A DNA stretch of 64,000 nt from an uncultured Acidobacteriaceae bacterium (GCA_963788515.1 CAWBGZ010000003.1:830768-894767), one strand, 5' to 3'. Positions 17,382-55,903 are shown, counted from the first letter of the stretch. Program-made: numbers and translations. Notes: generated by a model from the sequence alone, not told the origin.

Positions 17382-17416
17382 GCAACACCTCACCTTTCCG
17401 ACCGTAGTCAGTGTAG

Positions 17417-18168: not shown

Positions 18169-18188
18169 CTGTCAGTAGTGACAGGTGC
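18169..18188. repeat. Intergenic palindrome CTGTCR-N4-YGACAG, copy a
   Basis: ggaaCTGTCAGTAGTGACAGgtgc. About 156 nt upstream of the 18013 start (minus strand) and about 390 nt upstream of 18581 (plus strand). Confidence 0.7.
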
Positions 18189-26424: not shown

Positions 26425-26880
26425 CTATGGGTGCTCGAGCGACCAGACTTTCTGGATGAGAGCAAATAAGAAAGCGGCGGTCAGCCCGAACAGGATCCAT
26501 CCATCCAAAGCCTCAAGCGGCCACATGAGCTGCCAGCCTGGCTCCAGGCGGAGATCAGTGCCCCCTACGGTTGTCATGACGCTCAACGAGTACAACATTG
26601 CCTGCTTCCGGTCGCCGCCCAACGCACCAAGCAGATGGTAAGCGACGGACCACGTCCACGCTTCAACACCATGCAGGCATATGGCGCAAAATGAAGATCC
26701 CCCAACTACCAAGACCGACAGGGTATGGGTGAGACGCTTATTCTGCTCCTCTTTCAGGAGGATACGCAGCCCCCGGCTGAGCAGCCCAAGACCATAGGAG
26801 TGGAAGACTATGGTCAGAAGAATGAGGGGGATACTCCATAGCCAATCGGACCTCCATGGAGCAAGCGGGGCAGAAGTCAT
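26425..26880 (-). CDS. Two-TM pore-loop ion-channel-like protein with a non-canonical filter
   Basis: TM - pore helix - SVMTTVGGTDLRLEP - TM (WILFGLTAAFLFALI). This resembles the K+ channel TVGYGD region but reads TVGGTD. Start is uncertain (ATG 26880 or GTG 26928). Confidence 0.55.
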   Translation of the reverse strand: MTSAPLAPWRSDWLWSIPLILLTIVFHSYGLGLLSRGLRILLKEEQNKRLTHTLSVLVVGGSSFCAICLHGVEAWTWSVAYHLLGALGGDRKQAMLYSLSVMTTVGGTDLRLEPGWQLMWPLEALDGWILFGLTAAFLFALIQKVWSLEHP

Positions 26881-26921
26881 AAGTGAACAATAGTGAACCA
26901 AGGGGAATGCGATCAAGGGAA

Positions 26922-26940
26922 CTGTCACTTACGACAGGTG
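26922..26940. repeat. Intergenic palindrome, copy d
   Basis: ggaaCTGTCACTTACGACAGgtgc. About 105 nt upstream of 27045 (plus strand) and about 42 nt upstream of 26880 (minus strand). Confidence 0.7.
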
Positions 26941-27044
26941 CAACAGTTTGTAATTTGCATAAATTGACTGGCCGACTAGGACTTTTGCTAATGGGCTGAT
27001 CAGCACCGAACTGATAGATTGCCCTTGTGATTTGTGAACAAACG

Positions 27045-28022
27045 ATGATGAAGTTCCGCGTATGTTTATGCACGGCGTTGTTCCTCTTGATGGCGCTTAC
27101 ATCCACCTTAGCTCTGGCGCAACAGAGCAAGCCTCCGGTTGCAGCAGACACACCGATCGCACCGGAGGGAGCGCAGGTTGCCACGGAGCAGACGCCTGCG
27201 GCCGCTGCCAGCACCGATGCCTTGAGGAAAGCGACACAAAACCCGGTTGCCAGTCTCATCAGCGTTCCCATCCAAAACAATAGCAATTTTGGGGTGGCTC
27301 CTGGCGACCGAACCCAGGATGTTCTCAATATTCAGCCTGTCGTGCCATTGAGCCTTACCAAGGACTGGAATCTGGTCATTCGCTGGATCACGCCGATTGT
27401 ATGGCAGCCGCTGCCGAATCAACCATCGGATCCCGAAACAGGGGTCTATGGCTTCGGTGATATGCAGCCGACTTTCTTCCTGGTGCCGAAGAAGACTGGA
27501 AAGTTGATCTGGGGAGGAGGCCCTATCGTTCAGTTGCCCACCGCCACCAGCAAATTCCTTGGGCAAGGGAAGCTGGGGTTAGGGCCGTCTATTGTTCTGC
27601 TGACGCAACCCGGCCCCTGGACGATCGGTGTTTTGGCAAACAACGTGTGGTCCGTGGCAGGTTCAGGCGGCCGTCCGGATGTGAATCAATTTCTAATGCA
27701 GTACTTCATCAACTACAACTTGAAGAAGGGCTGGTATTTGACCACCGCGCCCATTCTTACTGCTAACTGGCGGTCTACCAGCGGAGGCACCTGGACCGTG
27801 CCCTTCGGCGGCGGTGTAGGCAGAATCATGAAACTGGGCTTTCAACCGGTGAACCTCAGCGCAACGTTTTATGGCAACGCAGTCTATCCCACGGGAACTT
27901 CATCTTGGAACATGCGTCTGCAGATCGCGTTTCTGTTCCCCAAGCTGACCAAGGAGCAGGAAATGATGATGATGGAGCAGCGGCTGAAACAGATGAAGGA
28001 TCAGCCAACAAAGCAAAAGTAA
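27045..28022 (+). CDS. Outer-membrane beta-barrel protein (MetA-pathway/'transporter'-like family by recollection)
   Basis: Signal peptide MMKFRVCLCTALFLLMALTSTLALAQQ. Alternating beta-strand pattern, with GFGDMQPTFFL, GLGPSIVLL and NQFLMQYFINYNL. The tail is Met/Gln/Lys-rich. Confidence 0.5.
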   Translation: MMKFRVCLCTALFLLMALTSTLALAQQSKPPVAADTPIAPEGAQVATEQTPAAAASTDALRKATQNPVASLISVPIQNNSNFGVAPGDRTQDVLNIQPVVPLSLTKDWNLVIRWITPIVWQPLPNQPSDPETGVYGFGDMQPTFFLVPKKTGKLIWGGGPIVQLPTATSKFLGQGKLGLGPSIVLLTQPGPWTIGVLANNVWSVAGSGGRPDVNQFLMQYFINYNLKKGWYLTTAPILTANWRSTSGGTWTVPFGGGVGRIMKLGFQPVNLSATFYGNAVYPTGTSSWNMRLQIAFLFPKLTKEQEMMMMEQRLKQMKDQPTKQK

Positions 28023-29508: not shown

Positions 29509-31038
29509 TTATTTATGTCCCGCGACAGCGGCCTGTGTTTGATGCAACGACGCCATCACTGCGTCGAGGTTAAAGGAAGCTGCCTTTTGGCGAGGCGGAT
29601 ACTTCACATAGTTCTCTATCTGGCCAGCCACGACTGCCTGGCACAGATAAAGTTGGGGGACGTGATTGATCATCCAATCAAAGTAGACATTGGAGTTGTA
29701 GTCGGCGCGCTCGAACGGATCCCGACGGAGGTTAAAGATGTGCGGAAGCCGCAGCTTCACCATGGGCTCTGCCCAAACCTGCGTTGAGAATGCACGCTGT
29801 ACTTCAAACACCAGTTTATAATCGCCGACCCGGACTGCCATGACGCCGCCATCATCGCTGATGTAGAAGAAGTATTCCCTGGGGCTCTCCTTCACCTGGC
29901 CAGTGATATAGGGCAGCATATTGAAGCCGTCGATATGTACTGTGAACGTCTTGTCCCCGGCTTTGTAACCGGTGAGAAGCTTCGTACTGACGTCTGGATC
30001 ACCTGCGGCCGCCAGCAGTGTGGGCAGCATATCCTGGTGGGTCACGATGCCGTTCAGCACCGAGCCCGCAGGAATCTTGCCTGGCCAGCGGAGGAACGCC
30101 GGAACACGCCATGCGCCTTCCCAGTTGGTGTCTTTCTGGCTGCGGAACGGTGTGTTGGCGCCATCGGGCCAGGTGTCGTTCTCCGGTCCGTTGTCAGTGG
30201 AATACATGACGATAGTGTTGTCGGCGATGCCCAGTTCATCGACTTTGTTCAGGATCTCACCAATTTGCTCGTCGTGGGTGACCATGCGATCGCTGTAGTC
30301 GTCCTGGCCGCTCTTGCCGCGGTTCTTATCGGCAAGGTGCGTCCTGAAGTGCATGGCGGTTGAGTTGTACCAGAGGAAGAAGGGCTTATCCGCCTTGACT
30401 TGCTTTTCCATCCAGCCGATGGCGCCTGCTGTGATCTCCTCATCGACTGTCTCCATGCGCTTCTTGGTAAGGGGGCCCGTGTCTTCGATGGTCTGCTTGC
30501 CTACTCTTCCCCAGCGAGGATCAGTCGTTGGGTCATCTTTGTCGGTTGCGAAGCAGTGCAGCACGCCTCTGGGTCCAAATCTGGCCAGGAACTTGGGATC
30601 CTTGGGATAGTCGGGCAGTTCCGGTTCTTCTTCGGCGTTCAGGTGATAGAGATTGCCAAAGAACTCGTCGAAGCCGTGCACGGTCGGCAAGTATTCGTTG
30701 CGATCCCCGAGATGGTTCTTTCCGAACTGGCCGGTGGCATAGCCGAGCGGCTTGAGCAATTCAGCGATAGTCGGGTCTTCAGGCTGAAGTCCGACAGTAG
30801 CGCCGGGCATGCCGACTTTCGTCAGACCGGTGCGGAGCGGGTTCTGGCCGCAGATGAAAGAAGCGCGTCCAGCGGTGCAGCTCTGCTGGCCGTAGTAGTC
30901 AGTGAAAGTGACGCCTTCTTTGGCGACGCGGTCGATATTCGGGGTGGTGTAGCCCATCATGCCTCGGCTGAAGTGACTGATGTTCCAAGTGCCGATGTCA
31001 TCGCCCCAGAGGATCAGGATATTCGGTTGTTTAGCCAT
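29509..31038 (-). CDS. Arylsulfatase (Cys-type, CxAxR variant), no signal peptide
   Basis: MAKQPNILILWGDDIG, YGQQSCTAGRASFICG (C-T-A-G-R), GKNHLGD, YSTDNGPE, WEGAWRVP. 509 aa and intact. Confidence 0.88.
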   Translation of the reverse strand: MAKQPNILILWGDDIGTWNISHFSRGMMGYTTPNIDRVAKEGVTFTDYYGQQSCTAGRASFICGQNPLRTGLTKVGMPGATVGLQPEDPTIAELLKPLGYATGQFGKNHLGDRNEYLPTVHGFDEFFGNLYHLNAEEEPELPDYPKDPKFLARFGPRGVLHCFATDKDDPTTDPRWGRVGKQTIEDTGPLTKKRMETVDEEITAGAIGWMEKQVKADKPFFLWYNSTAMHFRTHLADKNRGKSGQDDYSDRMVTHDEQIGEILNKVDELGIADNTIVMYSTDNGPENDTWPDGANTPFRSQKDTNWEGAWRVPAFLRWPGKIPAGSVLNGIVTHQDMLPTLLAAAGDPDVSTKLLTGYKAGDKTFTVHIDGFNMLPYITGQVKESPREYFFYISDDGGVMAVRVGDYKLVFEVQRAFSTQVWAEPMVKLRLPHIFNLRRDPFERADYNSNVYFDWMINHVPQLYLCQAVVAGQIENYVKYPPRQKAASFNLDAVMASLHQTQAAVAGHK

Positions 31039-32196: not shown

Positions 32197-32505
32197 CTAC
32201 GGAATCATTCCGCAGTCGAACATTTTGTTGGCGATGGGGGCAGCCACCTTGTTAATGAACACTACACGCATCTGCGGATCACTCTTCAAGAACTGTACTA
32301 CCTTCACTTCTTGCGGCGAAGGCGGTTGCGGCTGCTGCTTCTTCGCTATCAGTTCCTGGCAGGGGGTACTCTGGTACTTCTGAATCACCTTGGCCGCGAG
32401 TTTATCTAGCATTGGGTACTGCTCTTGCGCCTGCGTTCCGGTTACCATGGTCAGGGCTAATGGGGAAGTCAGTAAAACGAACTTGCCGATACGATTAAGC
32501 TTCAT
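32197..32505 (-). CDS. Small secreted hypothetical protein (102 aa)
   Basis: ATG at 32503-32505 preceded by AGGAGAAAAC. MKLNRIGKFVLLTSPLALTMVTGTQAQ is a signal peptide. The longer track ORF (to 32802) is a chimera with a gene remnant. Confidence 0.55.
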   Translation of the reverse strand: MKLNRIGKFVLLTSPLALTMVTGTQAQEQYPMLDKLAAKVIQKYQSTPCQELIAKKQQPQPPSPQEVKVVQFLKSDPQMRVVFINKVAAPIANKMFDCGMIP

Positions 32506-32624
32506 CAGTTGTTTTCTCCTTGTTTCGAAAAATGCTAAACCCTTCCTGGCTGAGATCGAGACGAAGAAGCGCCCGAAATCCCTGGGGAAGGTTGCCGGAG
32601 CTATTAGAACAGGATTAGGTGTAT

Positions 32625-32835
32625 GCGCGCAGGCGTGCTTCTCTGCTGGCGGCCTCCCCCGAAGACATCGAGCTTGAAATCGGAGTTCTTCTTTGAATCG
32701 GCGTTCCCCCAGCGCACCACGGCGGGATATACCCCGGGCTTCACAAACGTCCCAGTGGCGAGCCAGGCGGCCAGCTGGGGGTCCCGTCCAGCTTTTACTC
32801 AAGGATTCGAACTGGGCCGGGCGCAGACCCCCTTT
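32625..32835 (-). pseudogene. Remnant of a y4iL-like catalase-family gene with ~0.7-kb internal deletion
   Basis: 32625-32659 matches 46619-46653 (35 nt, 1 mismatch by eye). 32672-32835 matches 47355-47520 (roughly 80% by eye) of the intact gene 46528-47598. The two blocks are only about 12 nt apart here. Confidence 0.7.
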
Positions 32836-33092
32836 GGGTGGGTTCCGGGGCCAGCGCGGTATTGTGACTCCAAAATGCCAAAAAATGAGCGCAAAAAGCG
32901 CTATAGGCGCTAGAAGTCCTGTGGGGTGACCCCTTAGGTTGAGACAGTTTTAAAAGCGCGCTTCCTCTTCGGCCACCCACTCGTCTGAGTCGGTTTCGTC
33001 TCCTCATTTCCCAGGGTGCCCGTGACTCGGGAGGTAGCTTTCAAGCCGACGCGATTCCATTAGGGTCATTTCCGTCCCACTTTCCCCACGTC

Positions 33093-36696: not shown

Positions 36697-37554
36697 ATGA
36701 GCTTAATTCAAAGTCACCTCACGATTACGTTTCCGATTAAATCACCCGCAGATGCAAGAGCGATTGCAGAAGAGCTGCCCACGTTGATGGCCGATTTCGC
36801 GAAAGCGCAGGATGCCATCGGATCCGTGCATTACTCCCGTTTCCTCCCCTTCGACGATAACTCGCTCATCTTCCTCGCCGACGTTGACGGCGAGCTCGAA
36901 AAGCTCAGTGGAGATCTGGCGAAGTCTGCGGGGCCAGTGTTTGACTCCATATTCAAGCACGTCAGTGACCCTCCTCCCACGCCGGTGGCCAGCAACTCTG
37001 ATGCGTTCATCAAATGGGTGAAACAACATTCATCTAATCCTCTGATCGTCTACTCCGCTTTTGGAAACGCTTCGGTTCAGGACATCAAGGCCGCCGTTCG
37101 TGCCGTGGGCTTCAAGGGCAGTAGCGAGCAGTCCCCTTTACTGATCGCTCTGCCTATGAAATCGAAGCTGAAAGCCTTTGTCTTTGAGGACATCGTTTTG
37201 AAAGCCGCGGCGAAGACTATGACGGAAGGAGCGAACTCCATTGGCACATTGCATTTCGCCCACTTTGTGCCCCTCGCGGACACCCACCTCGGCTTCTTCA
37301 CCATCTTCGACGGTACTTTCGAAAAGTACATCGGGGACTTTACGGAGAAGATCGGGCCGGTTTTCGACCTTATGTTCAAGTATGTAAGCGATCCGCCGCC
37401 AACCCCTGTCGCGAAGCATGCCAAGGCGTTCTTGGATTTTTCTGGAGCAATGAATCGCCCCGGCATCGGGTATTACAGTGCCTACCCAGGCCTGGCGGTT
37501 CAAGATGTCAGGGCCTTGCTCGCCGACGCTAAGGTAGGAGCTGCTTCGCGTTGA
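36697..37554 (+). CDS. Internally duplicated (2 x ~140 aa) protein of unrecognised family, copy A
   Basis: RBS GAAAGGAG before the ATG. The two halves align: GSVHYSRFLPF..LIFLADVDGELEKLSGDLAKSAGPVFDSIFKHVSDPPPTPVA versus GTLHFAHFVPL..LGFFTIFDGTFEKYIGDFTEKIGPVFDLMFKYVSDPPPTPVA. A paralogue lies at 49301-50152. Confidence 0.75.
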   Translation: MSLIQSHLTITFPIKSPADARAIAEELPTLMADFAKAQDAIGSVHYSRFLPFDDNSLIFLADVDGELEKLSGDLAKSAGPVFDSIFKHVSDPPPTPVASNSDAFIKWVKQHSSNPLIVYSAFGNASVQDIKAAVRAVGFKGSSEQSPLLIALPMKSKLKAFVFEDIVLKAAAKTMTEGANSIGTLHFAHFVPLADTHLGFFTIFDGTFEKYIGDFTEKIGPVFDLMFKYVSDPPPTPVAKHAKAFLDFSGAMNRPGIGYYSAYPGLAVQDVRALLADAKVGAASR

Positions 37555-37632
37555 TCGCTCAGTCTTGGCGAACAGCGATTCGTTGCTAAGCACCGGAGGA
37601 CGAGCATTGGCCTCCGGTGCCTGTCTCTGAAG

Positions 37633-37698
37633 TCAAACCAGTCGGGAAATGAATTTTACAGCGGTGATGCTTGGCAAGAAGTAGTTCGTCCTTAAGGA
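37633..37698 (-). pseudogene. 3'-terminal remnant (~20 codons) of a third DyP-type peroxidase gene
   Basis: It encodes ...NYFLPSITAVKFISRLV*, almost identical to the C-termini of 40969-42540 (CFLPSITAVKFISGLV*) and 47719-49275 (CFLPSVTAIKFISKLG*). Nucleotide similarity continues through TTCGTCCTTAAGGA. Confidence 0.7.
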
Positions 37699-37705
37699 GA
37701 ATGAG

Positions 37706-39802
37706 ATGAAATGGAGATCAGCTGTTCCGAGACCGACGCTCGCGGCGATCATGATTTGCAATTTGTTTTTTGTAACACGGACGTTTGCTGCCGACATCGG
37801 CGGCCAAGTGTTGGGCGCAGGCAAGCCCATCACCCAATCAACGGTGACCCTATTGGCAGCGAGCGCGGGCCAGCCCAAACAACTCGCACAGACCAAAACC
37901 GACAACGATGGCCGGTTCGTGATCGATAGCACTGGCACGGCTGACTCCAGCCTCTATCTTGTAGCTACCGGTGGCGTATCTGCAGCCAATCAAGGAGCCG
38001 GTGAAAATCCGGCGATTGCGCTGATCGCGGTCGTGGGAAGCAATCCCCCAGCCCGCGTCACCATCAACGAGTTCACTACCATTGCATCGGTGGTGACCCA
38101 TGCGCAGTTCATCGACGACACCACCATCAAAGGCGCCCCGCTCCAGCTGCGGATTGCGGCGGGCAACGTGCCCAACTTCGTCGATTTAGAAACAGGCAGT
38201 TGGGGGCAGACGATTCTCGACGCCCTCAACAGCGCGCAGACACCGACGATGGCCAACTTCGGCACGCTAGCCAACGTGATGGCCGGTTGTATCACGCGCG
38301 TGAGGCCAGATGCGTGCAGCCAGTTCTTCGCGGCGACTACGCCTCCCAGCGGCGGCGCTCCACCGGATACGCTTCTTGCGGCGGAAGTGGTCGCGTCGTT
38401 CCCATGGCACCAGCCGGACAAAATATTCGCGCTTCTCAACCAGTTCTATCCCCTGCCGAAGTCCGGCATTCCCGGCAAGCTCTTGCGGGATACACCGTAC
38501 CTGCCGTATCTCACCTTCGCTCCCAGCGCCTTCGTGTTCCCGCTTAAGTTCACGGGTGGTGGCGTGAGCGGGGGCGGCAAGCTCATGTTCGACAGCGAAG
38601 GCAATGCCTGGGTTGCCGACAACTTCTCCGTCGGCGCGCAAAACCAGGACGCCTCGTGGACCGGCAACGTCAGCAAGTTCGCTCCCAATGGTAAGCCGCT
38701 TTCACCTAGCCCCCTGGGCTTCAGCGGCGGAGGTCTGGCAGGCCCCGGTTTCGGATTGGCGGTCGACGCTCAGGACAACGCGTGGGTCACCAGCTTTACC
38801 GGCCAGAACATCTCGAAGTTCGATAAGAGCGGCAATCCGCTTTCGCCACCCGAGGGCTGGAACTTTAACCGCCAGATCAGCCAGATGCAGGGCATCATCG
38901 CCACTCCAAGTGGCGACATCTGGACGCTGGACCTGATCAAGGGCCAGGTTCTGAAACTACCCCAGGGCGATCCATCTAAGGTCCAGTTCTACTGCCAGAA
39001 CAAGACCGGCGATCCGCTGAAGAACCCTTGCAAACTTGTCGGGCCCTTCGCCCTCGCCATTGATCAGCAGGACCGAATCTGGATTACCAACGCCGTCACG
39101 GACAAAGTTGTTCGTTTCCCAGCTTCCGATCCCAGCAAAGTCGAAACGTTCAAGGTAGGATACTCTGCCAGCGGCCTCGCTATCGACAGCCTGGGCAACG
39201 TGTGGGTGACGAATAAACTGGGCAGCTCGCCCAAGGGGGAATTGAAATTCGGGGAAATGCTGGCCGCATTTAAATTCAACTTCGACAACGACCCCGACGC
39301 CGGGGCAAGAGCGACCAAAGTCCTGGTTCCTGCCATGGCCGTGGAGAAATCCGGCTACGAAGGCGGCAGCGTTACGGTGTTGCGCCCCGACGGCACCGAG
39401 GCGCCCTTCTCGCCGGTGTATGGCAAGGGTATAGTCGGGCCCTGGGCGGCTTCAGTCGACGGCAATGATAACGTCTGGATTTCCAACTTCGCCTCCTCGT
39501 CGGCCGGAATAGTAGAGTTGTGTGGCTTCCGCACCGAACACTGCCCGCCGGGCGTAAAGACCGGTGACGCCATCTCGCCTCCAGGCGGTTACGTCGGCGG
39601 CGGATTGCAATTGCAGGTGGACGTTGGCATCGGTCCCGCCGGAGATGTCTGGGTCACCAATAACTGGCAGGACTACAAGGACGCCCTGGGCAAGACCGAT
39701 GAAGCAGTACAAACCCTCGGCGCGGGCCAAGGGGTGGTGGTCTTCTACGGAATGGCAAAGCCGGTTAAGGTGCCGCTGATCGGTCCGGCTCGTCCGTTCT
39801 AA
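37706..39802 (+). CDS. Secreted NHL-repeat beta-propeller protein with an N-terminal carboxypeptidase-regulatory-like domain
   Basis: Signal peptide, then GQVLGAGKPITQSTVTLL...TKTDNDGRFVI. Repeated blocks follow: D..GN.WV.N / DRIWITN / GNVWVTN / DNVWISN / GDVWVTNNW. Confidence 0.75.
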   Translation: MKWRSAVPRPTLAAIMICNLFFVTRTFAADIGGQVLGAGKPITQSTVTLLAASAGQPKQLAQTKTDNDGRFVIDSTGTADSSLYLVATGGVSAANQGAGENPAIALIAVVGSNPPARVTINEFTTIASVVTHAQFIDDTTIKGAPLQLRIAAGNVPNFVDLETGSWGQTILDALNSAQTPTMANFGTLANVMAGCITRVRPDACSQFFAATTPPSGGAPPDTLLAAEVVASFPWHQPDKIFALLNQFYPLPKSGIPGKLLRDTPYLPYLTFAPSAFVFPLKFTGGGVSGGGKLMFDSEGNAWVADNFSVGAQNQDASWTGNVSKFAPNGKPLSPSPLGFSGGGLAGPGFGLAVDAQDNAWVTSFTGQNISKFDKSGNPLSPPEGWNFNRQISQMQGIIATPSGDIWTLDLIKGQVLKLPQGDPSKVQFYCQNKTGDPLKNPCKLVGPFALAIDQQDRIWITNAVTDKVVRFPASDPSKVETFKVGYSASGLAIDSLGNVWVTNKLGSSPKGELKFGEMLAAFKFNFDNDPDAGARATKVLVPAMAVEKSGYEGGSVTVLRPDGTEAPFSPVYGKGIVGPWAASVDGNDNVWISNFASSSAGIVELCGFRTEHCPPGVKTGDAISPPGGYVGGGLQLQVDVGIGPAGDVWVTNNWQDYKDALGKTDEAVQTLGAGQGVVVFYGMAKPVKVPLIGPARPF

Positions 39803-40934: not shown

Positions 40935-40968
40935 TTCTCTTCACGCTGGCGATCGCGTTGCCTGCCGG

Positions 40969-42540
40969 TCAAACCAATCCGGAAATGAATTTGACTGCTG
41001 TGATGCTGGGCAAGAAGCAGTAAGCAGTGGCTTTCGTCCTAAGGAAGCTTGAGAACCCGGTGATCTTAATCGGCGGCGCGTCATCAGCCTGGGGGATCAC
41101 GAAAATACTTTCAGAGGGATCCTGTGTTCCCACAATAGGATCCTTCGATTTAGGATCCAGCCTGACTGCTCCGGCGAACTCGCTGTCATTTACCCAGTTA
41201 TGCAATACAAACTCATACTGGTTCTCGATGGTTGCGTTGATGAAGTAACCCAGAAGCCCGCGCTCGATACCGTCATAGGGTTGAGTCGGATCATAGACTG
41301 GCCCGTATGGCATACCACGACGGATCATTCGGTGAGCATTGTTGCTCCCGCCAGGTTCCCCTTGTCCCTGGACTGGCTGGCCGCGAGGATTTACCCGGCG
41401 TATGTGCGCCCCAACGGGGCAGCGAAGCCCTCTGGGATCCCCTGAGCCATCGGCGTTGACATACCCAAAATTGTTTAGCTGGTCGGGCGAAAGCCCGTCG
41501 GCGGGGTTATCAGTGTCTGGTGACAACGCAAGAGGAACGCCGTTGCGCCACCGCCCGCACATCTTTGCGGCTAGCAGTTCGGGGTCAATCTTGTCCTTGT
41601 TCTTTTGCAGATTATTCTCGAATCCAACCACATCGGTCACGATTATTTTGAAGACAGAGAAACTACCATTGAGGCCGAGTTCCCGGGGCTCGGGCACGGT
41701 GTAATTCTCAGCTCCGTCCTGTAAAACAAACAGCCACGGTTCGCACGGCTGCTGATGATCCGGTTTGTACTTGAGTGGACCACCGCGAATGGTGGTCATG
41801 CTGATGCCGTCGGTGTAGCCGAAGTGGAGTCTGGAGGTAAAGGTGGGCTTGCCATCAATTACCTCGGTTAACGCCATCCCGTCGGCGCGGTAGATCTCCC
41901 GAAAAGCATCGCCTTCGGCAAACAGAGCAGACAGGCGTTCGCTGTAGCTGGTCATTGCCTCCGGACTGATGGCGTAAAGCGTCACCAACACGTGGTCCGA
42001 CCCCGTCCCGAAGCCGCCGACCCAGTTCTGCGGCGCACTCGCCCCCGTGTCCCCCACAAAGGCTGCTCGTTCGGCCGCTCCCGCCATGAATGAGTGGAAC
42101 GACTCGAAGGAGAGCATGGGGACGCGATCTTTGATTTCCAATGCGATAAGTCCCGGCCACGTGATGCCCAGATTAAGGCAATAGTCCGGCTTACAGCGTG
42201 GAGGCTGCGCCGGATCGTCCCCCGGACCGGGTGCAAGACCCACCTGCCACTCCTCTGCGGTGGTTATCTGCGGCGCGTCCGCCTCGTCACCACTGACGAG
42301 TCGCCCCAGCATCTTCCGTGCCGCCGCTGGGACGCCGACCGATAGCAGGAAATGCCTCACTATGGGCATACTGTAACCGCGGATAATGATCCCCTGGATA
42401 TCATCAAGGTCGAGTGCGGATCTCCCGGCCGATCCTGAATGGGCATCGGCAGCAGACGGATCGATCCGGTCGAGCAGGCGGCGGAGGAAACCTTCGCCTT
42501 CCTTTGGCTGTGGCTCATCTTGTTTGATGTCCTGACTCAT
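40969..42540 (-). CDS. Long DyP-type (dye-decolorising) heme peroxidase family protein, copy A
   Basis: LDLDDIQGIIIRGY (N-terminal DIQG), FGYTDGIS (GxxDG), CPVGAHIRRVNPR (proximal His region), GYFINATIENQYEFVLHNWVND. 523 aa, no signal peptide. Confidence 0.82.
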   Translation of the reverse strand: MSQDIKQDEPQPKEGEGFLRRLLDRIDPSAADAHSGSAGRSALDLDDIQGIIIRGYSMPIVRHFLLSVGVPAAARKMLGRLVSGDEADAPQITTAEEWQVGLAPGPGDDPAQPPRCKPDYCLNLGITWPGLIALEIKDRVPMLSFESFHSFMAGAAERAAFVGDTGASAPQNWVGGFGTGSDHVLVTLYAISPEAMTSYSERLSALFAEGDAFREIYRADGMALTEVIDGKPTFTSRLHFGYTDGISMTTIRGGPLKYKPDHQQPCEPWLFVLQDGAENYTVPEPRELGLNGSFSVFKIIVTDVVGFENNLQKNKDKIDPELLAAKMCGRWRNGVPLALSPDTDNPADGLSPDQLNNFGYVNADGSGDPRGLRCPVGAHIRRVNPRGQPVQGQGEPGGSNNAHRMIRRGMPYGPVYDPTQPYDGIERGLLGYFINATIENQYEFVLHNWVNDSEFAGAVRLDPKSKDPIVGTQDPSESIFVIPQADDAPPIKITGFSSFLRTKATAYCFLPSITAVKFISGLV

Positions 42541-43627: not shown

Positions 43628-46090
<2,463 letters not shown>

Positions 46091-46527: not shown

Positions 46528-47598
46528 TCACTCGATGTTCTTTGCTGTAGCGACCCGCTCCAATGCTGGGGCAGAGGCGTGCACATCCGCTGCGATTCCA
46601 CTTTGGGGGCTGCTGTTCGCGCGCAGGCGTGCTTCTCTACTGGCGGCCTCCCCAAAGCAGCGAGCGCGGTTGATGCTTCCAACCGGCGTGCTGTCAGGGG
46701 TCGAGTGTCTGGTGACATCGAAATAGACGGTTTCGCCGGCATCTGGGCGAAGCTGAGACTGCGATAGCAGGGTGAGGCGCGCGATCGTGTGAAAAGGCGC
46801 TTCCGCTTCTTTCCACTTGACACTCGCGTTTTCAATCCAGAAGTTGGCGTCGTAGCGTTTACCCCAATAAGTCATCTTCTCGGCGTCGAGGAGTTGGACG
46901 GCAAAATCGAAGCTGCTCATCCTGCCATCCTCGTTGAGGTGCCGGACCAGCTCGTCCTGCAGACCTTTCGGGTTGCTCTTCTGCAGAGGGCGCGCCAGAT
47001 TGTCCGGTGAAGGGATAGCCGAATACTGGACAACGTCGATGGGTCCGTGGCGAAAGGGTACGTTGCTCCAGTAGCGGAGTTGCTGATAAGGCCGGATCTT
47101 CTGGCTCATCTGCAGTTTTGCCAGAGTCAGTATCCTCAGCACTCGTAGTTTGTCCTTGAACGACAATGACAACAAGCCGGAGAGTGGGTTCGATGCCGCC
47201 AGTACCCTCATGATCGCCGCAAATGCAGGGGAGTCGTTGATGGGCAGAGGCGGAGCGTTCTGCAGTGAAAAATCCTGTCGGCCACCGTTCCCGCCGGCGA
47301 CAGCCAAGCCACCCCGCGTAAGATCGACCGAGAATGACATAGACCGGACGTCGGGCTTGAAATCCGAGTTCTTCTTTGAATCAGCGTTTCCCCAGCGCAC
47401 GACCGCGGGATATACGCCGGGCTTGGCAAATATCCCCTTGGCGAGCCGCGCCGCCAGCTGAGGATCGCGTCCGACTGTAACGTCAAGGACTTCGAACTGG
47501 GCCCGCGCGCAGACCCCCTTCGCATGTGTTCCACGAGCAAGCGCGCCGGTGTTGCTCAGCAGCGGAAGTCGCCTGCACCTTGAGGGTTGTTCGGACAA
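46528..47598 (-). CDS. Catalase-related heme protein (y4iL-like mini-catalase family)
   Basis: GALARGTHAKGVCARAQFEV...GIFAKPGVYPAVVRWGNADSKKNSDFKPDVRSMSF fits the distal-His region of catalase-like proteins. The start is uncertain: the track start is TTG, and an upstream ORF in another frame (47483-47704) may be the true N-terminus. Confidence 0.62.
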   Translation of the reverse strand: MSEQPSRCRRLPLLSNTGALARGTHAKGVCARAQFEVLDVTVGRDPQLAARLAKGIFAKPGVYPAVVRWGNADSKKNSDFKPDVRSMSFSVDLTRGGLAVAGGNGGRQDFSLQNAPPLPINDSPAFAAIMRVLAASNPLSGLLSLSFKDKLRVLRILTLAKLQMSQKIRPYQQLRYWSNVPFRHGPIDVVQYSAIPSPDNLARPLQKSNPKGLQDELVRHLNEDGRMSSFDFAVQLLDAEKMTYWGKRYDANFWIENASVKWKEAEAPFHTIARLTLLSQSQLRPDAGETVYFDVTRHSTPDSTPVGSINRARCFGEAASREARLRANSSPQSGIAADVHASAPALERVATAKNIE

Positions 47599-47718
47599 TC
47601 TCCTCGATGTCAGACGATTCCCGCGGCGAGGTTCCGCTCACTGTCGCTACCCGGTCACTCCGAACCACCTGGTCAACCACAGCATAGGTCTCGGCCCTCC
47701 TCAACGCGTATCTTTTCG

Positions 47719-49275
47719 TTATCCCAGTTTGGAGATGAATTTAATTGCGGTGACGCTCGGCAAGAAGCAGTAGGCGGCGGCCTTCGTCGTAGTGAAGCTG
47801 GAGAACCCCGTCAGCTTGATTGGGGGGGCGCCATTTGCCTGGGGAATAACGAAGATGCTTTCCTTGGGGTCTTGCGTGCCGATCATAGGATCTTTCGCCT
47901 TAGGATCCAACCTGACGGCCCCCGCAAACTCGGCGTCGTTTACCCAATGTCCTAGCACGAACTCATATTGATTCTCGATGCTCGAGTTGATGAAGTAGCC
48001 GAGAAGGCCACGCTCGATACCGTCGTAGGGTTGCGCCGGATCATAGTTCGGTCCGTAGGGCAGGCCGCGGCGGATCAGACGATGAGTATTATTGCTGCCC
48101 CCAGGCTTGCCTTGCCCCGTGACTGGCTGGTCGCGTGGATTGACGCGGCGCATGTGCGCGCCCACAGGACAGCGCAGCCCTTTGGGGTCGCCCGATTCGT
48201 CTGCGTTCACGTATCCGTAGTTGTTCAGCTGATCGGGGGAAATTCCTCCCGGCGGACTGTCTGTTTCCGGCGACAATTCCAGAGGGGTGCCGTTGCGCCA
48301 GCGTCCGCAAATCTTGGCGGCGAGCAGCTCGGGATCTATCTTATCCTTGTGCGATTGCAAAAACTCTTCAAACCCAACTACGTCCGTCTTGATCATCTTG
48401 AAGACAGCAAAGCTCCCGTTCAGGCCGAGCTCTCGCGGCTCAGGCACGAAGTAGTTCTCGGCTTCGTCCTGTAAAACAAAGAGCCATGGTTCGCATGGCT
48501 CCTGGTGATCTGGCGTATATCGTTCGGGACCGCCGCGAATGGTGGTCATGCTGATGCCGTCGGTGTATCCGAAGGGAACTTTGGCGCAGGGTTGGGGCTT
48601 GCCATCGACCATCTGCAGCCAGGCGCTCCCGTCGGTATGCCAAATCTCCTGAAACGCTCCGCCTTCGGCAAACAGGGCAGACAGCCGATGGCTATAGGCC
48701 GTCATGGCCTCCGGACTTATGGCGTGTAGCGTCACCAGGACGTGCTCGCTTCCCCTGCCAAAGGCGCTGATCCAGTTTTCTGGTGCACTTGCCCCCGTAT
48801 CGCCGACCAGGCTCGCCCGTGCAGCCGCTCCGGCGACGAACGCGCCGAACGACTTGAACGAGAGCGTTGGCACACGATCTCTGATCTCCAGCGCGACCAG
48901 GCCTGGCCAGGTGATGCCCAGGTTAAGGCAGTAGTCGGGCTTGTGGCGGGGAGGATCGGCGGGATCGTCTCCTGGTCCGGGAGCGAGGCCTACATGCCAG
49001 TCCTCTGCGGTGGTAATCTGCGGCGCGTCCGACTCGTCGCCGCTGACCAGCCTCCCCAGAAGCTCGCGCGCCTGCGCAGCAACGCCCACGGAAAGCACGA
49101 AATGCCGCACCATGGGCATTCTGTATCCACGCAGGATGAACCCCTGAATATCACTCAGGTCGAGTGCGGACTTCTCCGGGCGGCCAGGTGTCTCAGGATC
49201 TTCCTTCCCGCCCCGGGGGGTCACCAGTTTGCGAAAGAACGATTCTGCAGACCATGATCTCTTATCTTCGCTCAC
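47719..49275 (-). CDS. Long DyP-type heme peroxidase family protein, copy B
   Basis: LDLSDIQGFILRGY, FGYTDGIS, CPVGAHMRRVNPR, GYFINSSIENQYEFVLGHWVND. I prefer the GTG at 49273-49275 (AAGAGG 6 nt upstream), 25 nt after the stop of the upstream gene, over the overlapping track start at 49389. Confidence 0.82.
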   Translation of the reverse strand: MSEDKRSWSAESFFRKLVTPRGGKEDPETPGRPEKSALDLSDIQGFILRGYRMPMVRHFVLSVGVAAQARELLGRLVSGDESDAPQITTAEDWHVGLAPGPGDDPADPPRHKPDYCLNLGITWPGLVALEIRDRVPTLSFKSFGAFVAGAAARASLVGDTGASAPENWISAFGRGSEHVLVTLHAISPEAMTAYSHRLSALFAEGGAFQEIWHTDGSAWLQMVDGKPQPCAKVPFGYTDGISMTTIRGGPERYTPDHQEPCEPWLFVLQDEAENYFVPEPRELGLNGSFAVFKMIKTDVVGFEEFLQSHKDKIDPELLAAKICGRWRNGTPLELSPETDSPPGGISPDQLNNYGYVNADESGDPKGLRCPVGAHMRRVNPRDQPVTGQGKPGGSNNTHRLIRRGLPYGPNYDPAQPYDGIERGLLGYFINSSIENQYEFVLGHWVNDAEFAGAVRLDPKAKDPMIGTQDPKESIFVIPQANGAPPIKLTGFSSFTTTKAAAYCFLPSVTAIKFISKLG

Positions 49276-49300
49276 CGCTTGCCTCTTGTGGATGCACGGT

Positions 49301-50152
49301 TTACTGCGGCGCCGCGGCGGCCCTGCTATCGGCGAGCAAGGCGTGAATGTCCTGAACGCCCAGGCCTGGATACGCCTGGTAGAACCCAATCGGCTGGCGG
49401 TTTGCCTTCGCCGCGAAGTCGATAAACTCCTGCAGGTACTTTCGGCAGGGCGAGGGTGGCGGGTTTGTGCAGAATTTGAATATTAGATCGAAGACTTCTC
49501 CAATGTTCTTGGTGAAGTCGGAGATGTACGTATCGAAGGAGCCGTCATACACGGTAAAGAAGCCAACCTGGTGGTCCTCAAGCGGCACGAATTGCGCAAA
49601 GTGGGGCGTGCCGACCTTGTCCAGATCGTGGGTTGTTCCGCGCCCCCTTGCGCGCAGCAGCAGTTTTATCTCGGTGAAAGCAAGTGCTGATTTTATTGGC
49701 AGGATCACCAGGAATGGATTTAGTACACCGTCCCCGCTGAGGCCTGCTGCGGATGCCAGGGCCCTGATCTCCTTTACCGTGGCGCCTGGGTACGCGGTGT
49801 AGCGATTCACCGGGCTCAAAAGGTGCTTCTCGGCCCAATCGACGAACGCATCTGCATGTTCGGCCACCGGAGTGGGTGGCGGATTGTCTACATGCTGGAA
49901 GATAAAATCAAATAGCGGTCCTGTATGTTTGGCGAACTCGCCAAAGAGGTCAGCGAATTCGCCGTCGAAGTCGCCCAGGAACAGCAGTGTTTTCTCGCTG
50001 AGCACGGTGAAGCGTGAGTAATGTATGGTGCCGATCCCATCCTCCGCCTGGAAGAGCGCCGGCATCAGGGGGGGGAGTTGCTCCGCCAACGCTTTTGCGT
50101 CTGAGGGCGCCTTCAAGGGAAATGCCAGTGTAAAGTGGCTCTGGTCTGTCAC
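49301..50152 (-). CDS. Internally duplicated (2 x ~140 aa) protein of unrecognised family, copy B
   Basis: Paralogue of 36697-37554: GTIHYSRFTVL...FLGDFDGEFADLFGEFAKHTGPLFDFIFQHVDNPPPTPVA and GTPHFAQFVPL...FFTVYDGSFDTYISDFTKNIGEVFDLIFKFCTNPPPSP. I prefer the GTG at 50150-50152 (AAGGAGG upstream). Confidence 0.75.
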   Translation of the reverse strand: MTDQSHFTLAFPLKAPSDAKALAEQLPPLMPALFQAEDGIGTIHYSRFTVLSEKTLLFLGDFDGEFADLFGEFAKHTGPLFDFIFQHVDNPPPTPVAEHADAFVDWAEKHLLSPVNRYTAYPGATVKEIRALASAAGLSGDGVLNPFLVILPIKSALAFTEIKLLLRARGRGTTHDLDKVGTPHFAQFVPLEDHQVGFFTVYDGSFDTYISDFTKNIGEVFDLIFKFCTNPPPSPCRKYLQEFIDFAAKANRQPIGFYQAYPGLGVQDIHALLADSRAAAAPQ

Positions 50153-50193
50153 GAGGAACCTCCTTTCAGTTCCTTCGCCTGCCGTGGCGGCTC

Positions 50194-50700
50194 CTAGGCG
50201 GGCCATTGCTTGAACATTTTCTGCACAGCCTTCGATACCATCTGCGAATTCTTGTTGCCGTTATTGCTCAGGGTATTTTGAGCAATTCCCCGCCAAATCA
50301 GGGACTTGGTCTTCGCGTCGTACAGGTCGACAATCATCGTCCCTATCACGTTCTGCTCGGGTGTGATTCCGCCCATTCCGCCACCGATGCCACGCATGCC
50401 CCATGCCTGGTAGGAGGTCTGCTGTTTCATGCCGCCGCTTGCGGTGAGGATGATGTCGGGATTCTGGGATTCCGTCACCAGTTGGAAACCCTTACCCTGC
50501 ATCGCATTGTCGATATCTGATTTGGCTTGTTGCGCCAGGATCGAGTTCTGGATTTCGTTGGCGTTGCCACCGCCCCAGGCGTAGGTGTGATACTGCGAAA
50601 AGCTCTGGCTGCGGTTGTAATTTACTGAGACTTGTTGCCCTAGGGCAACCACGGACGCGATGCACAGAAGCAGGGCGCACAATGCGTATTTCGTCTTCAT
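50194..50700 (-). CDS. DUF4136 lipoprotein
   Basis: MKTKYALCALLLCIASVVALG (signal/lipobox-like), FSQYHTYAWGG, PDIILTASGG, TMIVDLYDAKTKSLIWRG. This pattern is typical of DUF4136. Confidence 0.7.
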   Translation of the reverse strand: MKTKYALCALLLCIASVVALGQQVSVNYNRSQSFSQYHTYAWGGGNANEIQNSILAQQAKSDIDNAMQGKGFQLVTESQNPDIILTASGGMKQQTSYQAWGMRGIGGGMGGITPEQNVIGTMIVDLYDAKTKSLIWRGIAQNTLSNNGNKNSQMVSKAVQKMFKQWPA

Positions 50701-50777
50701 GATCGTTATCCTTTACGTGTAATTCCGTTAGCACCAGTGTTTACCGCGATCATTCTCCCGGAACTGCGGCTTGCCTA

Positions 50778-50793
50778 CTGTCACTTATGACAG
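50778..50793. repeat. Intergenic palindrome, copy i
   Basis: ctaCTGTCACTTATGACAGgcc. About 78 nt upstream of the DUF4136 start at 50700. Confidence 0.7.
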
Positions 50794-51426: not shown

Positions 51427-52827
51427 TTAGGAGGCTTTAACAAGCGCTGGCGGCTGCCAGGTGCCCTTGCCCGGCGGCAGTATGGAAGGCGCCGACTCTT
51501 TCGGCCAATACAAGCGCATCACCAGGTAAATCGGGCCATCGGGGGCAGGCAGCCAGTTGGCTTCATTCTCCTTGCCCGGCGAGTCTTTTTGGATATAGAG
51601 CGTTAGCGAACCATCCGGATTCGTCTTCATGTCCGGCAACATGGGAGAGTTGATCAGATACCGGTTAATCGGGATTCTTTATCAGGAACTGGCTCTTGCC
51701 GTCATACATCGTCACCGACCAAAATGCGTTCACCGGCGGAAGCTCACCCTTGGCAAAGGTCAAAGTGTACTTATGCTTGCTGCCGTCGAGCTTCTCTCCG
51801 TTGGGCAGGATTCGGGTCAAGGGGTACATCGCCTCGATCGCGCTGTTACCGAAAATTCCACCCTTGGCGGCCGCGGCCCGCTTGAGCCAGTCTCCGCTGT
51901 AGAAGGCACGATCGCCGAAAAATGAGCCCACGTTCCAGCCGTTGATGACTGCTCCTCCGCTGGCAATGTACTTGTCGACCGCATCCATGCCCTGCTTCAT
52001 CCCAAGCAGGACCTCGGCCTTATGCTCAGAGAGAGGTCTTTCATTTCAAATTGTTTGCCGGCACCGATTCCAATGCTCGCCAGCTTCGCGCGAATTCCCA
52101 CCTCTTCCGGGCCAGCCGGAGAATACTGCAAAGCAAAGTCGAGTAGCTGCCAAAACTCCTTCTTCGCAATTTCCGCGTCGGCCTTGAGGTAGTTGATCGC
52201 GGGCGGAGGCGGAGGCGCGGGCTGCTTGAGAAAGGCGGAGAGTGGCTGCACCTTGTACCCGGCCTGGATCTTGACCACGTTCGGCATATCCGCTGCATCG
52301 AAGAGTTGGGTGCGAAAGATCACAACGGAGAACGGCGTCGTCGAATGGAAGACCTGCTTGATTTGCGCGGGGACTTCACCCTTCCAATCGGGGCCAACGA
52401 TCATGAAGTCGCCCGCCTCGGCGCCCGTGGTCCGGCTGCCGATGTATCCGTAGTTGAAGGTGTTGGCATCGGTCAGCTGCACGGAGTAGTAGCGCGGCTT
52501 TGCAACCGCAGGGACCGATATCACCGTCGGTTCCGCGCGCAGGTCGATCTGCATCAAGGAGTACGGCGTGTCGCTATTGGGCGTGATGACCGCTGTGTCT
52601 TCGTAGGTAAACACCCGTGCTTCATTAGTGAGCGTGCCGGTTGGCGCCTTGTATTGGGACGAAGTTGTGTCCACAAACAACTCGTATGCCGACGTGTAAT
52701 ACATCACCAGCGGCAGTCCGTAGATGAGTCCTTGTTCGGCGATGGCTTTGGTCTCGAGGATGCCGGGTACGGGAACGCCATTGATCTTGTCCAACTTCTC
52801 GGCCTGCGAGATCGCATCAGCACTCAT
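51427..52827 (-). pseudogene. DUF1254/DUF1214 gene broken by two single-base frameshifts
   Basis: ATG at 52825-52827 (AAGGAGGA upstream). Three ORFs (51997-53073, 51665-52000, 51427-51642) carry consecutive parts: IYGLPLVMYY..TPNSDTPY..PRYY | MKQGMDAVDKYI..PPVNAFWSVTMYDGKSQFLIKNP | MLPDMKTNPDGSLTLYIQKDSPGKENEANWLPAP..RLYWP. Confidence 0.8.
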
Positions 52828-53240
52828 GGTCTTTCCTCCTTGCAGGCCTTCTAGCCCAAGGGAAGCATACCGGCCTCCACGGGACTGGCCCACTAGCAGT
52901 AATGCTAGTGACGAACCAAAACAAAGAGAGGGAAGCCAGCGCCGTCCCGTTGTCGAGTTTCGGGCCGGCTTAACCGCCGATACGGCCGAACAGTAGTTCT
53001 CCGGCTCAGATTCCCTAATTCGCCTGCCACTTTTGCTAGTTACAGGAGCGTTTTGACGCGCCGTAAACTGCACTTGCGCATCGGCTGCGATCCTTGTGTC
53101 GCCTAAAAGGATCCCGCACTATGCGTTTGACACATCGCAGTGATTTGCCGGGATTGGTTTCACGGTAGCCTGCGTGGCCTCTTGCCAAATCGGCTAACAA
53201 GTCACATTCATAGGTACACCCTGTGAGGAGAACACCCCCC

Positions 53241-54997: not shown

Positions 54998-55192
54998 GCG
55001 CGTGGAGATGATGTGGGGCTGGATAGTCAGGGGCACGCACGGCCACTAGGTTTTTCGTTGGGATATCTAGTATTTTTGTGGGTTCACGCCAGGCGGTCGG
55101 CTTGAGACACTTCCCACACAATCGTCGCGCACTTGATGCGACGGCGAGCAAAGATCAGAAGCTAAACTTCTCGCATAACTATAGGAACGACA

Positions 55193-55903
55193 ATGTCGAA
55201 GATGACTCGAGAGACTACTGGAGCCGATGGACGCCCGCTCCCAATCCTGCCTCCGGAGCGCGACGCACGCGTTTGGGCCCGGCTGGTGCGCGTATTGTTT
55301 TACCTGCCTGGCTTCATGGGTCTGTTGCTGCTAAAGACCGGCGAACCTGCAGGCTTCGGGATCACCGTCGAACTGCTGATGCTCTCCAGCGCGTCCGCTG
55401 TTGTTGGGGGCCTGTTCATCGGTTCAGAATCATCAGGCGCCGGTGCGGATGCCGCCTCCAAAGTGGGCACCTGGAGCGGAGCGCTGGCCATCGAGCTGCT
55501 CGCAGTGGTGCCTTTCTTATGCGCGATCCCAACGCTGTTCCACGAACTAGCGCACAGCGCGCTCTTGCATTCCAAGCTGCCTGATTCCGTCGACGTTACC
55601 CTCGGCGCCTCCGAACTACTGCCGGCCGTAGCGATCATACCGTTCCTGATCTACGAGCTTGCCGGCTTCGGTACCTTGAGCTACGTGGTGACGAAGCCTT
55701 TGAACTGGCTCATCAACGCGGTTATTTTCTGCTTGATCATGACCAGTTATATCGCCTACCGCGTGGGTGAGTACTCCATAGAAAAGCGGGTCGGTGCTTT
55801 GCTCGTTGCCGTCATGGCGATTATCGTTTTCTACGGTGTGCTCAAGCTGAAACGAATGCAGGCTATCTACGATGAGCACTGCCCACCAAAGGCTTCGAAA
55901 TAA
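55193..55903 (+). CDS. Hypothetical multi-TM membrane protein
   Basis: 236 aa with about 6 hydrophobic helices. No family recognised. Confidence 0.55.
   Translation: MSKMTRETTGADGRPLPILPPERDARVWARLVRVLFYLPGFMGLLLLKTGEPAGFGITVELLMLSSASAVVGGLFIGSESSGAGADAASKVGTWSGALAIELLAVVPFLCAIPTLFHELAHSALLHSKLPDSVDVTLGASELLPAVAIIPFLIYELAGFGTLSYVVTKPLNWLINAVIFCLIMTSYIAYRVGEYSIEKRVGALLVAVMAIIVFYGVLKLKRMQAIYDEHCPPKASK

Follow-up and report, generated by a model that had tools for sequence, protein, structure and literature searches.

What does the compact run of minus-strand genes at positions 46528 to 50793 of a 64,000-nucleotide (nt) stretch of DNA from an uncultured Acidobacteriaceae bacterium (GCA_963788515.1 CAWBGZ010000003.1:830768-894767) encode, and do its parts belong together? 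Below, the window means this whole 64,000-nt stretch. The initial annotation had proposed a heme-enzyme operon made up of a DUF4136 lipoprotein, an unrecognised duplicated protein, a long dye-decolorizing peroxidase (DyP) and a y4iL-like mini-catalase. We found the cluster to be real, widely conserved in soil bacteria and uncharacterised, with parts that belong to known superfamilies, and its nearly invariant core to be the pair formed by the duplicated protein, a predicted alpha+beta barrel, and the DyP. The four genes are listed here with protein lengths in amino acids (aa); the second and third are called dup B and DyP B to separate them from paralogs in the window.

50194..50700, minus strand, DUF4136 protein with a signal peptide (Pfam PF13590)
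49301..50152, minus strand, predicted tandem ABM-like alpha+beta-barrel protein, dup B, 283 aa (AlphaFold model and Foldseek)
47719..49275, minus strand, predicted class V (C/D-type) DyP peroxidase, DyP B, 518 aa (phmmer against the PDB)
46528..47685, minus strand, predicted y4iL-like catalase-fold protein with a broken frame (orthologs and Foldseek)

The stretch 46528-50700 is filled by four open reading frames (ORFs) on the minus strand. We placed the start of dup B at GTG 50152 behind AAGGAGG, 41 nt past the DUF4136 stop, and that of DyP B at GTG 49275 behind AAGAGG, 25 nt past the dup B stop, both as first annotated. The start of the catalase-like gene had been left at two alternatives giving a gap of 14 or 120 nt, and neither is right: the start that fits the orthologs is ATG 47685 behind GAGGAGG, 33 nt past the DyP stop. 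No terminator-like site was found in any of the three gaps between the four genes. A shared strand, short gaps (41, 25 and 33 nt) and a conserved order are the features expected of an operon, and on these gene-layout criteria the run reads as a co-directional conserved cluster that would form a single transcription unit.

The evidence that the parts belong together comes from other genomes, where co-occurrence of the barrel, DyP and catalase-like families is massive and was seen in genome loci, metagenome loci and two Rhizobiaceae plasmids (L and P numbers are our handles for loci and proteins). The genome set consists of 80 loci from a scan of species-representative genomes, mostly metagenome-assembled genomes (MAGs) of Acidobacteriota and also including records from Bradyrhizobium (the isolate Bradyrhizobium sp. 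143 among them), Acetobacteraceae and Verrucomicrobia. The order barrel protein, DyP, catalase-like protein on one strand is kept in 76 of the 78 sufficiently long loci, and clustering of the ORFs recovered the barrel protein in all 80 loci, the catalase-like protein in 76 and the DyP in 73. For the metagenome set, we scanned with distant members of the barrel family (30-75% identity) as seeds and collected 80 further loci. Where these had at least 500 nt of downstream sequence, a DyP gene lay directly downstream in 52/58 cases and convergent in 3/58, giving a total of 55/58. Sixteen of the 80 metagenome loci (L154-L169) match one domain length only and most of them encode single-domain proteins of 138-157 aa; wherever downstream sequence exists, the next gene is a DyP 37-50% identical to that of the window, and in several of these loci the tblastn matches of the barrel and the DyP abut or overlap. 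The gaps are short elsewhere too, being 15-16 nt in L086 and L089.

The pairing also takes forms that differ from that of the window. Two proteins, P0363 (811 aa) and P0382 (937 aa), fuse a divergent class-I-like cytochrome P450 to barrel domains, and on the P0363 contig the fusion is followed by a DyP gene, overlapping by 4 nt, and then by a patatin-like gene. The P450 part is similar to P450s of natural-product pathways, for example CypX and EryK, and a peroxide-using P450 of the CYP74 or CYP152 type was rejected. Two cultured Rhizobiaceae have independently rearranged versions of the module. On plasmid p1 of Rhizobium rosettiformans (L171, NZ_CP032406, 457768-461774), the order is DyP, single-domain barrel, a 'catalase family peroxidase' with a normal Tyr and a strong Pfam Catalase match (6e-23), and then an alpha/beta hydrolase. 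On a plasmid of Sinorhizobium chiapasense (L170, NZ_CP133149, 60550-68538), hemA is followed by a single-domain barrel, a DyP, NIPSNAP and DUF4331 proteins, and then by a TPR protein and a c-type cytochrome. Barrel protein and DyP thus form an old, nearly invariant pair, which mini-catalases of three different types have joined in different gene orders; a y4iL-like catalase-fold protein joins this core in Acidobacteriota and in some Proteobacteria. The four-part unit of the initial annotation stands as a conserved cluster, but its invariant part is smaller than annotated, with the catalase-like protein as a frequent third member and DUF4136 as an optional one. Literature searches on y4iL, on DyP gene context, on DyP with Acidobacteria or ABM, and on WhiE-ORFI/AbxO returned no description of the cluster, in agreement with the annotation's remark that no characterised system combines these parts.

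Two further loci show other neighbours. In L087 (1692-3044), a lipoprotein-type barrel member, P0318, lies beside a 450-aa secreted CVSCH (c-type heme) protein rather than a DyP; it belongs to the small number of family members that we found with no DyP next to them. In L088 (570-4292), two divergent barrel paralogs adjoin a 542-aa hydrolase of the GDSL/SGNH type (Pfam Lipase_GDSL, 3e-6), and the 7-kb contig contains no DyP.

What, then, is the partner of the DyP? The internal duplication and the single conserved His in each half (H44 and H184) are as first described, the halves of dup B being 27-36% identical to each other. The label 'unrecognised' holds for the sequence and fails for the fold. 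Searches with dup B by sequence and by profile found no match in Pfam, NCBIfam or the PDB, and thus no well-characterised unrelated family to which the protein could be assigned; the Pfam families ABM (PF03992) and SchA_CurD matched none of 42 barrel-family members even at E<=10. In contrast, the AlphaFold (AF2) model computed from 42 sequences is of high confidence (pLDDT 96.5, pTM 0.92) and consists of two beta-alpha-beta-beta-alpha-beta (ferredoxin-like) halves with the same order of secondary-structure elements. The top Foldseek match was the ABM/SchA-like WhiE-ORFI (9lmn; E 1e-9, TM 0.59), followed by the polyketide decarboxylase Abx(+)O, an anthrone-oxidase-like protein, PenE and two tandem-ABM 'putative monooxygenases', and the probability of the matches to tandem ABM/SchA-like structures was 1.00. 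HemQ/Cld-like identity was rejected, as the TM score was only about 0.25, and no IsdG-family structure was among the 50 matches listed. The model thus identifies the duplicated protein as a predicted tandem ABM-like alpha+beta barrel.

In each half of the barrel, GT(I/V)H(F/Y)xRF lies where strand beta2 starts and is followed by DGxF, PPPxP and (F)YxAYP, and the best-conserved residue is the His of the GT(I/V)H motif. The protein shares with the ABM/SchA-CurD-like enzymes the arrangement of two ferredoxin-like halves in one barrel; the structures concerned are 9LMN for WhiE-ORFI, 9LTX for Abx(+)O, 5F9P for the anthrone-oxidase-like protein, 9KDP for PenE and 3F44/3MCS for the tandem ABM proteins. 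It differs from them in having only 7-13% sequence identity, a conserved motif set of its own, and a DyP as its genomic partner where theirs is a polyketide synthase. The domain, of about 135 aa, is unnamed in Pfam and NCBIfam, and RefSeq labels both plasmid homologs 'hypothetical protein'. The family is nevertheless large: it comprises more than 3,290 clusters at 90% identity, or 980 at the 50% level, and was located at 306 places in species-representative genomes of bacteria and archaea.

The DyP itself is easier to place. A phmmer search of the PDB with DyP B gave the Deinococcus radiodurans DrDyP as a match (8re3, 4e-56, residues 135-517), together with an ancestral D-type DyP (7anv, 6e-36, residues 37-512) and 18 further DyPs, including fungal DyPs, AnaPX and DyP2; the homology extends over both ferredoxin-like domains. 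The scores against TIGR01413 (66.2 bits, cut-off 100.5) and Pfam DyP_N (20.6 bits, cut-off 27.5) were below threshold, and with the strong matches to solved DyPs this points to a divergent clade rather than to a non-member. The motifs named in the initial annotation, DIQG, GxxDG (here GYTDG) and the proximal-His region GAHMRRVNPR, are present and kept in 68-71 of 71 orthologs. GYTDG, HRLIRRG and GAHMRRVNPR align to D189, R348 and H324 of DrDyP, and strict regular expressions found the Asp of GxxDG in 71/71 orthologs, the distal Arg in 57/71 and the proximal His in 68/71. DyP B, dup B and the catalase-like protein appear by eye to have no signal peptide, and we consider DyP B a class V (C/D-type) DyP and a predicted cytoplasmic heme peroxidase.

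DrDyP has been assigned to class C, a group within class V (PMC10820274). With the class V enzymes DrDyP (8RE2/8RE3), Amycolatopsis DyP2 (4G2C) and Anabaena AnaPX (5C2I), DyP B shares homology, the GxxDG Asp, the distal Arg and the proximal His, and like class V DyPs it is long (about 520 aa), predicted to be cytoplasmic and without a Tat signal (PMC10820274). It differs in an N-terminal extension of about 35 residues before DIQG, which is found at residue 11 in DrDyP, and in adjoining an ABM-like barrel gene, a partner of which we found no report for the characterised class V DyPs, whose gene neighbourhoods we did not compare.

DyP systems with dedicated partners are known from EfeUOB, which contains the class A DyP EfeB, and from the class B DyPs packaged in encapsulins. 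As in these, the DyP gene of the present cluster is tightly linked to a specific accessory gene. The partner, however, is a soluble alpha+beta barrel, not the cupredoxin/permease of EfeUOB nor the capsid-like shell of encapsulins, and DyP B belongs to another class than either and has no Tat signal.

The fourth gene poses two questions, one of reading frame and one of active site. The ORF listing of the window contained it only as a 356-aa ORF from TTG 47598. The orthologs are 358-384 aa long (modal length 384 aa), start MLWLT... and begin MLWLTRWFGVTG, and the same peptide is encoded from ATG 47685 in the window; TTG 47598 and TTG 47704 were rejected as starts on this ground. DNA alignment to two orthologs revealed three 1-nt insertions, near 47652, 47624 and 47544, that disrupt the frame, and deleting them gave a 384-aa ORF with a product 87% identical to an ortholog. 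The insertions are probably assembly errors, because similar scattered 1-nt insertions or deletions (indels) are seen in related sequences and elsewhere in the window: the closest relative found, L023 (90.7% nt identity), has its own in the barrel-protein and catalase-like genes, several related MAG loci show split genes, and the window has a further insertion at 51674. The last lies in a DUF1254-type gene (51427-53073, minus strand) that is split into three ORFs, with the 1-nt insertion relative to L023 at one junction. Overlapping same-strand ORF pairs, possibly frame-split genes, were also noted at 9028-10664 (plus), 16890-18013 (minus), 26425-27328 (minus) and 55078-55903 (plus).

Searches with the catalase-like protein by sequence and profile against Pfam, NCBIfam and the PDB gave only subthreshold matches to Pfam Catalase (PF00199); these were seen in 21 of 36 family members at 13-24 bits (cut-off 25) and, where inspected, were colinear with the profile. 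The AlphaFold model, built from a shallow alignment, is of low confidence (pLDDT 54.6, pTM 0.53) and its C-terminal helix is not readable, but all 50 Foldseek matches listed for it, of 80 at E<=1e-3, have the catalase fold, with the 33-kDa catalase-related MAP_2744c (3e4w, 1e-7) at the top and chanoclavine synthase, true catalases and the coral AOS-LOX (AOS, allene oxide synthase; LOX, lipoxygenase) following. The catalase-type distal region RGTHAKG noted in the initial annotation is present and invariant in the family, and together with VVRW/F, LQNA and GSINRARxxGExASRxAR it is kept in at least 90% of 67 orthologs. RGTHAKG, LQNA, VVRW and the final Arg align to R72, H75, N148, R112 and R365 of human catalase (sequence checked against PDB 1f4j), which means that the family keeps the distal His, the distal Asn and the Args holding the heme propionates; an hhalign comparison of the family with human catalase alone was colinear, with an E value (0.05) that is not significant.

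The proximal side of the putative heme pocket is different. A homolog in L133, which is 30% identical (E 2e-31), y4iL-like and scores exactly the cut-off of Pfam Catalase (25.0 bits), bears a Tyr; its helix, GGVNRIRRVVYKTISSLRR, shows the R(-4)-Y-R(+7) pattern of catalases and pairs without gaps with the helix GSINRARCFGEAASREAR of the window family. This gapless match fixes the register and places an invariant Glu at the position of the iron-binding Tyr, so that the pattern R(-4)...Y...R(+7) is absent from the family; an alternative register with a Phe at that position was rejected on the same evidence. A Thr precedes the distal His, which makes a Thr-His pair like T66-H67 of coral allene oxide synthase (PMC5617202); true catalases have Val in its place. 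From these alignments, the fourth gene appears to encode a y4iL-like catalase-fold protein without the usual heme-binding tyrosine. With MAP_2744c (3E4W), coral AOS, y4iL-like proteins and the 'catalase family peroxidase', it shares a length of about 360 aa, a probable catalase-core-like fold, the Thr before the distal His, the distal Asn and the propionate Args; it departs from these catalase-related hemoproteins in having an invariant Glu in the GSINRARxxGExASRxAR helix where they have the proximal Tyr, and in its subthreshold Pfam Catalase scores. The annotation of the gene as a heme enzyme is insecure on account of the Tyr-to-Glu change and of the broken frame. We know of no natural catalase-fold protein with a glutamate iron ligand.

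Around this core, other elements recur less regularly. In addition to the DUF4136 gene, three features of the window are relevant.

43628..46090, minus strand, 820-aa arylsulfatase-type protein (Pfam Sulfatase 2e-61, CxPxR motif)
32197..32505, minus strand, small secreted protein of about 103 aa, 77% identical to a homolog in L006 (14121-14432)
50778..50793, no strand assigned, palindrome CTGTCA-N4-TGACAG, CTGTCACTTATGACAG, 77 nt upstream of the DUF4136 ATG

The DUF4136 protein is a clear member of its family (PF13590, E 6e-31, 108 bits against a cut-off of 32.8). It has a signal peptide, but by eye no canonical lipobox, and does not fit the earlier description as a lipoprotein. Of the 80 genome loci, 35 have its gene upstream according to tblastn and 45 according to ORF clustering, and we rejected it as a core member because it is present in less than 60% of the loci and is predicted to be exported. 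A neighbour as frequent as DUF4136, and absent from the earlier description of the cluster, is the arylsulfatase: it has orthologs (>=55% identity) in 43 of the 80 genome loci. In 39 it is encoded upstream in the same orientation; 19 of these 39 show a gap below 200 nt, often of only tens of nt. It lies upstream of the cluster in L025-L082 and L105-L127, and is seen in many metagenome loci. The protein has no obvious signal peptide and ends in a C-terminal region of about 300 aa without a family match. The small secreted protein family (about 104 aa) occurs in 40 of the 80 loci and trails the catalase-like gene in many relatives; its features are a PPQPPSPQE stretch and two conserved Cys, and Pfam gives no significant match for it. 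The palindrome, which had been placed about 78 nt upstream of the first gene and lies at 77 nt, is present in 10 copies in the window (16 nt each, at 18169, 19830, 23836, 26922, 32156, 36049, 36456, 40916, 43026 and 50778), with 0.14 expected by chance. Its copies are often followed by GTG, the one upstream of DUF4136 being followed by TAGGCA on the coding strand, and in 16 related loci it precedes the DUF4136 start by 78-82 nt. The palindrome may serve as an operator or promoter element, or may be a repeat resembling repetitive extragenic palindromic (REP) sequences.

The initial annotation had also pointed to a recurrence of the same families elsewhere in the window, and all of the copies it named are real.

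40969..42540, minus strand, paralogous DyP, DyP A, 523 aa, 74% identical to DyP B
36697..37554, plus strand, paralogous tandem barrel, dup A, 285 aa, 49% identical to dup B
37632..37681, minus strand, DyP 3' fragment of 50 nt, with 88% nt identity to the 3' end of DyP A (40968-41017)
32624..32846, minus strand, catalase-like remnant (tblastn 76% identity over 62 aa, E 6e-22)

The 50-nt DyP fragment gives a tblastn match of 14 aa, and the catalase-like remnant covers only residues of about 23-84 and 304-327. In L008, L015, L017 and L021, a second barrel gene, of the dup A type, separates the DyP gene from the catalase-like gene, and intact convergent pairs of a dup A-type gene and a DyP exist in L129 and L132. 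By comparison with these, dup A and the abutting DyP fragment appear to be a relic of such a convergent pair. DyP A is 3.3 kb from dup A, past an NHL-repeat/CarboxypepD_reg gene (37706-39802), and the segment 37632-40969 has the appearance of an insertion or rearrangement by which the 3' end of the DyP became duplicated. After the catalase-like remnant (32.6-32.8 kb) come the gene of the small secreted protein and that of a 509-aa sulfatase (29509-31038), an order shared with L001.

What might such a cluster do? Our preferred, still tentative, answer is a cytoplasmic, peroxide-driven module with a catabolic or detoxifying role on aromatics, in which the barrel protein serves as the dedicated partner of the DyP. 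The barrel protein would bind an aromatic substrate or intermediate and oxygenate or otherwise ready it, possibly via an organic hydroperoxide; oxidation of the prepared substrate by the DyP, with peroxide, would follow, and the catalase-like protein would deal with H2O2 or the organic hydroperoxide. Neighbouring ester hydrolases, the arylsulfatase here and alpha/beta hydrolase, GDSL and patatin-like proteins elsewhere, might free the phenolic substrate from conjugates. We infer a role on aromatics because the nearest structural relatives of the barrel, ABM enzymes that work without a cofactor, act on anthrone/quinone-type polyketides, because the fused P450 is of the natural-product type, because ester hydrolases, above all the arylsulfatase, are frequent neighbours, and because DyPs oxidise anthraquinones and phenols (PMC10820274). 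Among the possibilities raised in the initial annotation, aromatic-peroxide processing is nearer to this best guess, whereas lipid-hydroperoxide processing finds little support in the relatives of the barrel and the type of the fused P450. Several points weigh against the aromatic module. It is read from genes, folds and context. In sequence, the barrel family does not resemble ABM enzymes, and since these have no universal catalytic signature the fold alone gives no reaction. The sole invariant polar residue of each half, the His at the start of beta2, would fit the binding of a cofactor or heme at least as well as cofactor-less catalysis. The catalase-like protein, without a tyrosinate ligand, may not bind heme or handle peroxide, and its gene in the window is not an intact ORF. 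The sulfatase is found in only about half of the loci, and the wide variation of the genes outside the core makes a single shared substrate doubtful.

The conserved His raises the main competing explanation, which we find rather unlikely: the barrel could be an accessory of the DyP that binds heme or another tetrapyrrole, the His of each half (or of each single-domain subunit) acting as ligand. It might then be a heme chaperone, a b-type electron donor that makes the DyP an H2O2 scavenger resembling a cytochrome peroxidase, or an IsdG-like heme degrader, and the module would serve peroxide defence or heme/iron handling, not catabolism. This is plausible because in siroheme decarboxylase, also an alpha+beta barrel, the siroheme-binding His is likewise on strand beta2, and because many alpha+beta barrels bind heme, among them IsdG, HmoB, MhuD, OxdA, Cld, HemQ and DyP (PMC4835899). 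The partners of the barrel in the examined loci are moreover heme enzymes, mostly DyPs, with fused P450s and nearby catalase-fold proteins in addition, hemA adjoins the Sinorhizobium module, and gene pairs that are this tight, and often overlap, would be in keeping with a stoichiometric partner. However, the predicted structure of the barrel resembles ABM polyketide enzymes far more closely than HemQ or Cld, with no IsdG-family protein among the listed matches; the Asn/Trp/His triad of IsdG is not evident in the barrel motifs, and other DyP classes need no such chaperone. A role in processing fatty-acid or other lipid hydroperoxides, with the catalase-related protein akin to coral AOS or MAP_2744c in a pathway of the oxylipin type, seems improbable. 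It would agree with MAP_2744c as the nearest solved structure to the catalase-like model, the presence of the coral AOS-LOX among the matches, the distal Thr-His of coral AOS (PMC5617202) in place of the Val-His of true catalases, and the patatin-like and GDSL-type acyl hydrolases adjoining distant barrel-family members. Against it, the loci examined showed no gene for a lipoxygenase or dioxygenase, the fused P450 does not belong to the CYP74/CYP152 type that uses hydroperoxides, the structural relatives of the barrel act on aromatic polyketides, the commonest hydrolase neighbour is an arylsulfatase, and the proximal Tyr used by all characterised catalase-related hydroperoxide enzymes is missing. 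We regard it as very improbable that this genome has no working system, in which case gene adjacency would be a legacy of inherited synteny and the catalase-like gene a pseudogene in decay. Three frame-breaking insertions within the first 50 codons, and the catalase-like remnant and DyP fragment elsewhere in the window, are what such decay would leave. Yet the insertions add up to +3 and the remaining gene is intact and close to its orthologs, and the scattered 1-nt indels that affect different genes in L023 and MAGs of the same series, as well as position 51674 of the window, point to assembly error. Linkage is, furthermore, kept across phyla despite rearranged gene order, which inertia alone is not expected to explain.

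Two points deserve experiments, the partner of the DyP and the catalase-like family with Glu for Tyr, and these are feasible because cultured carriers exist, among them Bradyrhizobium sp. 143 and Rhizobium rosettiformans MAE2-X. The furthest-reaching outcome, which we consider unlikely, would be that the barrel is the obligate second subunit of a large clade of class V DyPs, making these two-component enzymes, and that the y4iL-like protein is a hemoprotein with Glu-ligated iron, the two together forming a new cytoplasmic peroxide-dependent pathway in abundant soil bacteria. The physiological roles of DyPs, above all of the cytoplasmic C-type, are poorly understood, and a near-constant partner gene, from a family that is large yet without a name in Pfam or NCBIfam, offers a way in. 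The catalase-like member raises a question of heme chemistry of its own, as its whole distal pocket is retained and Glu takes the place of the iron-binding Tyr. The Acidobacteriota that carry the cluster are dominant in soil and peat, and the link to an arylsulfatase suggests a role in the turnover of sulfated or phenolic soil organic matter.

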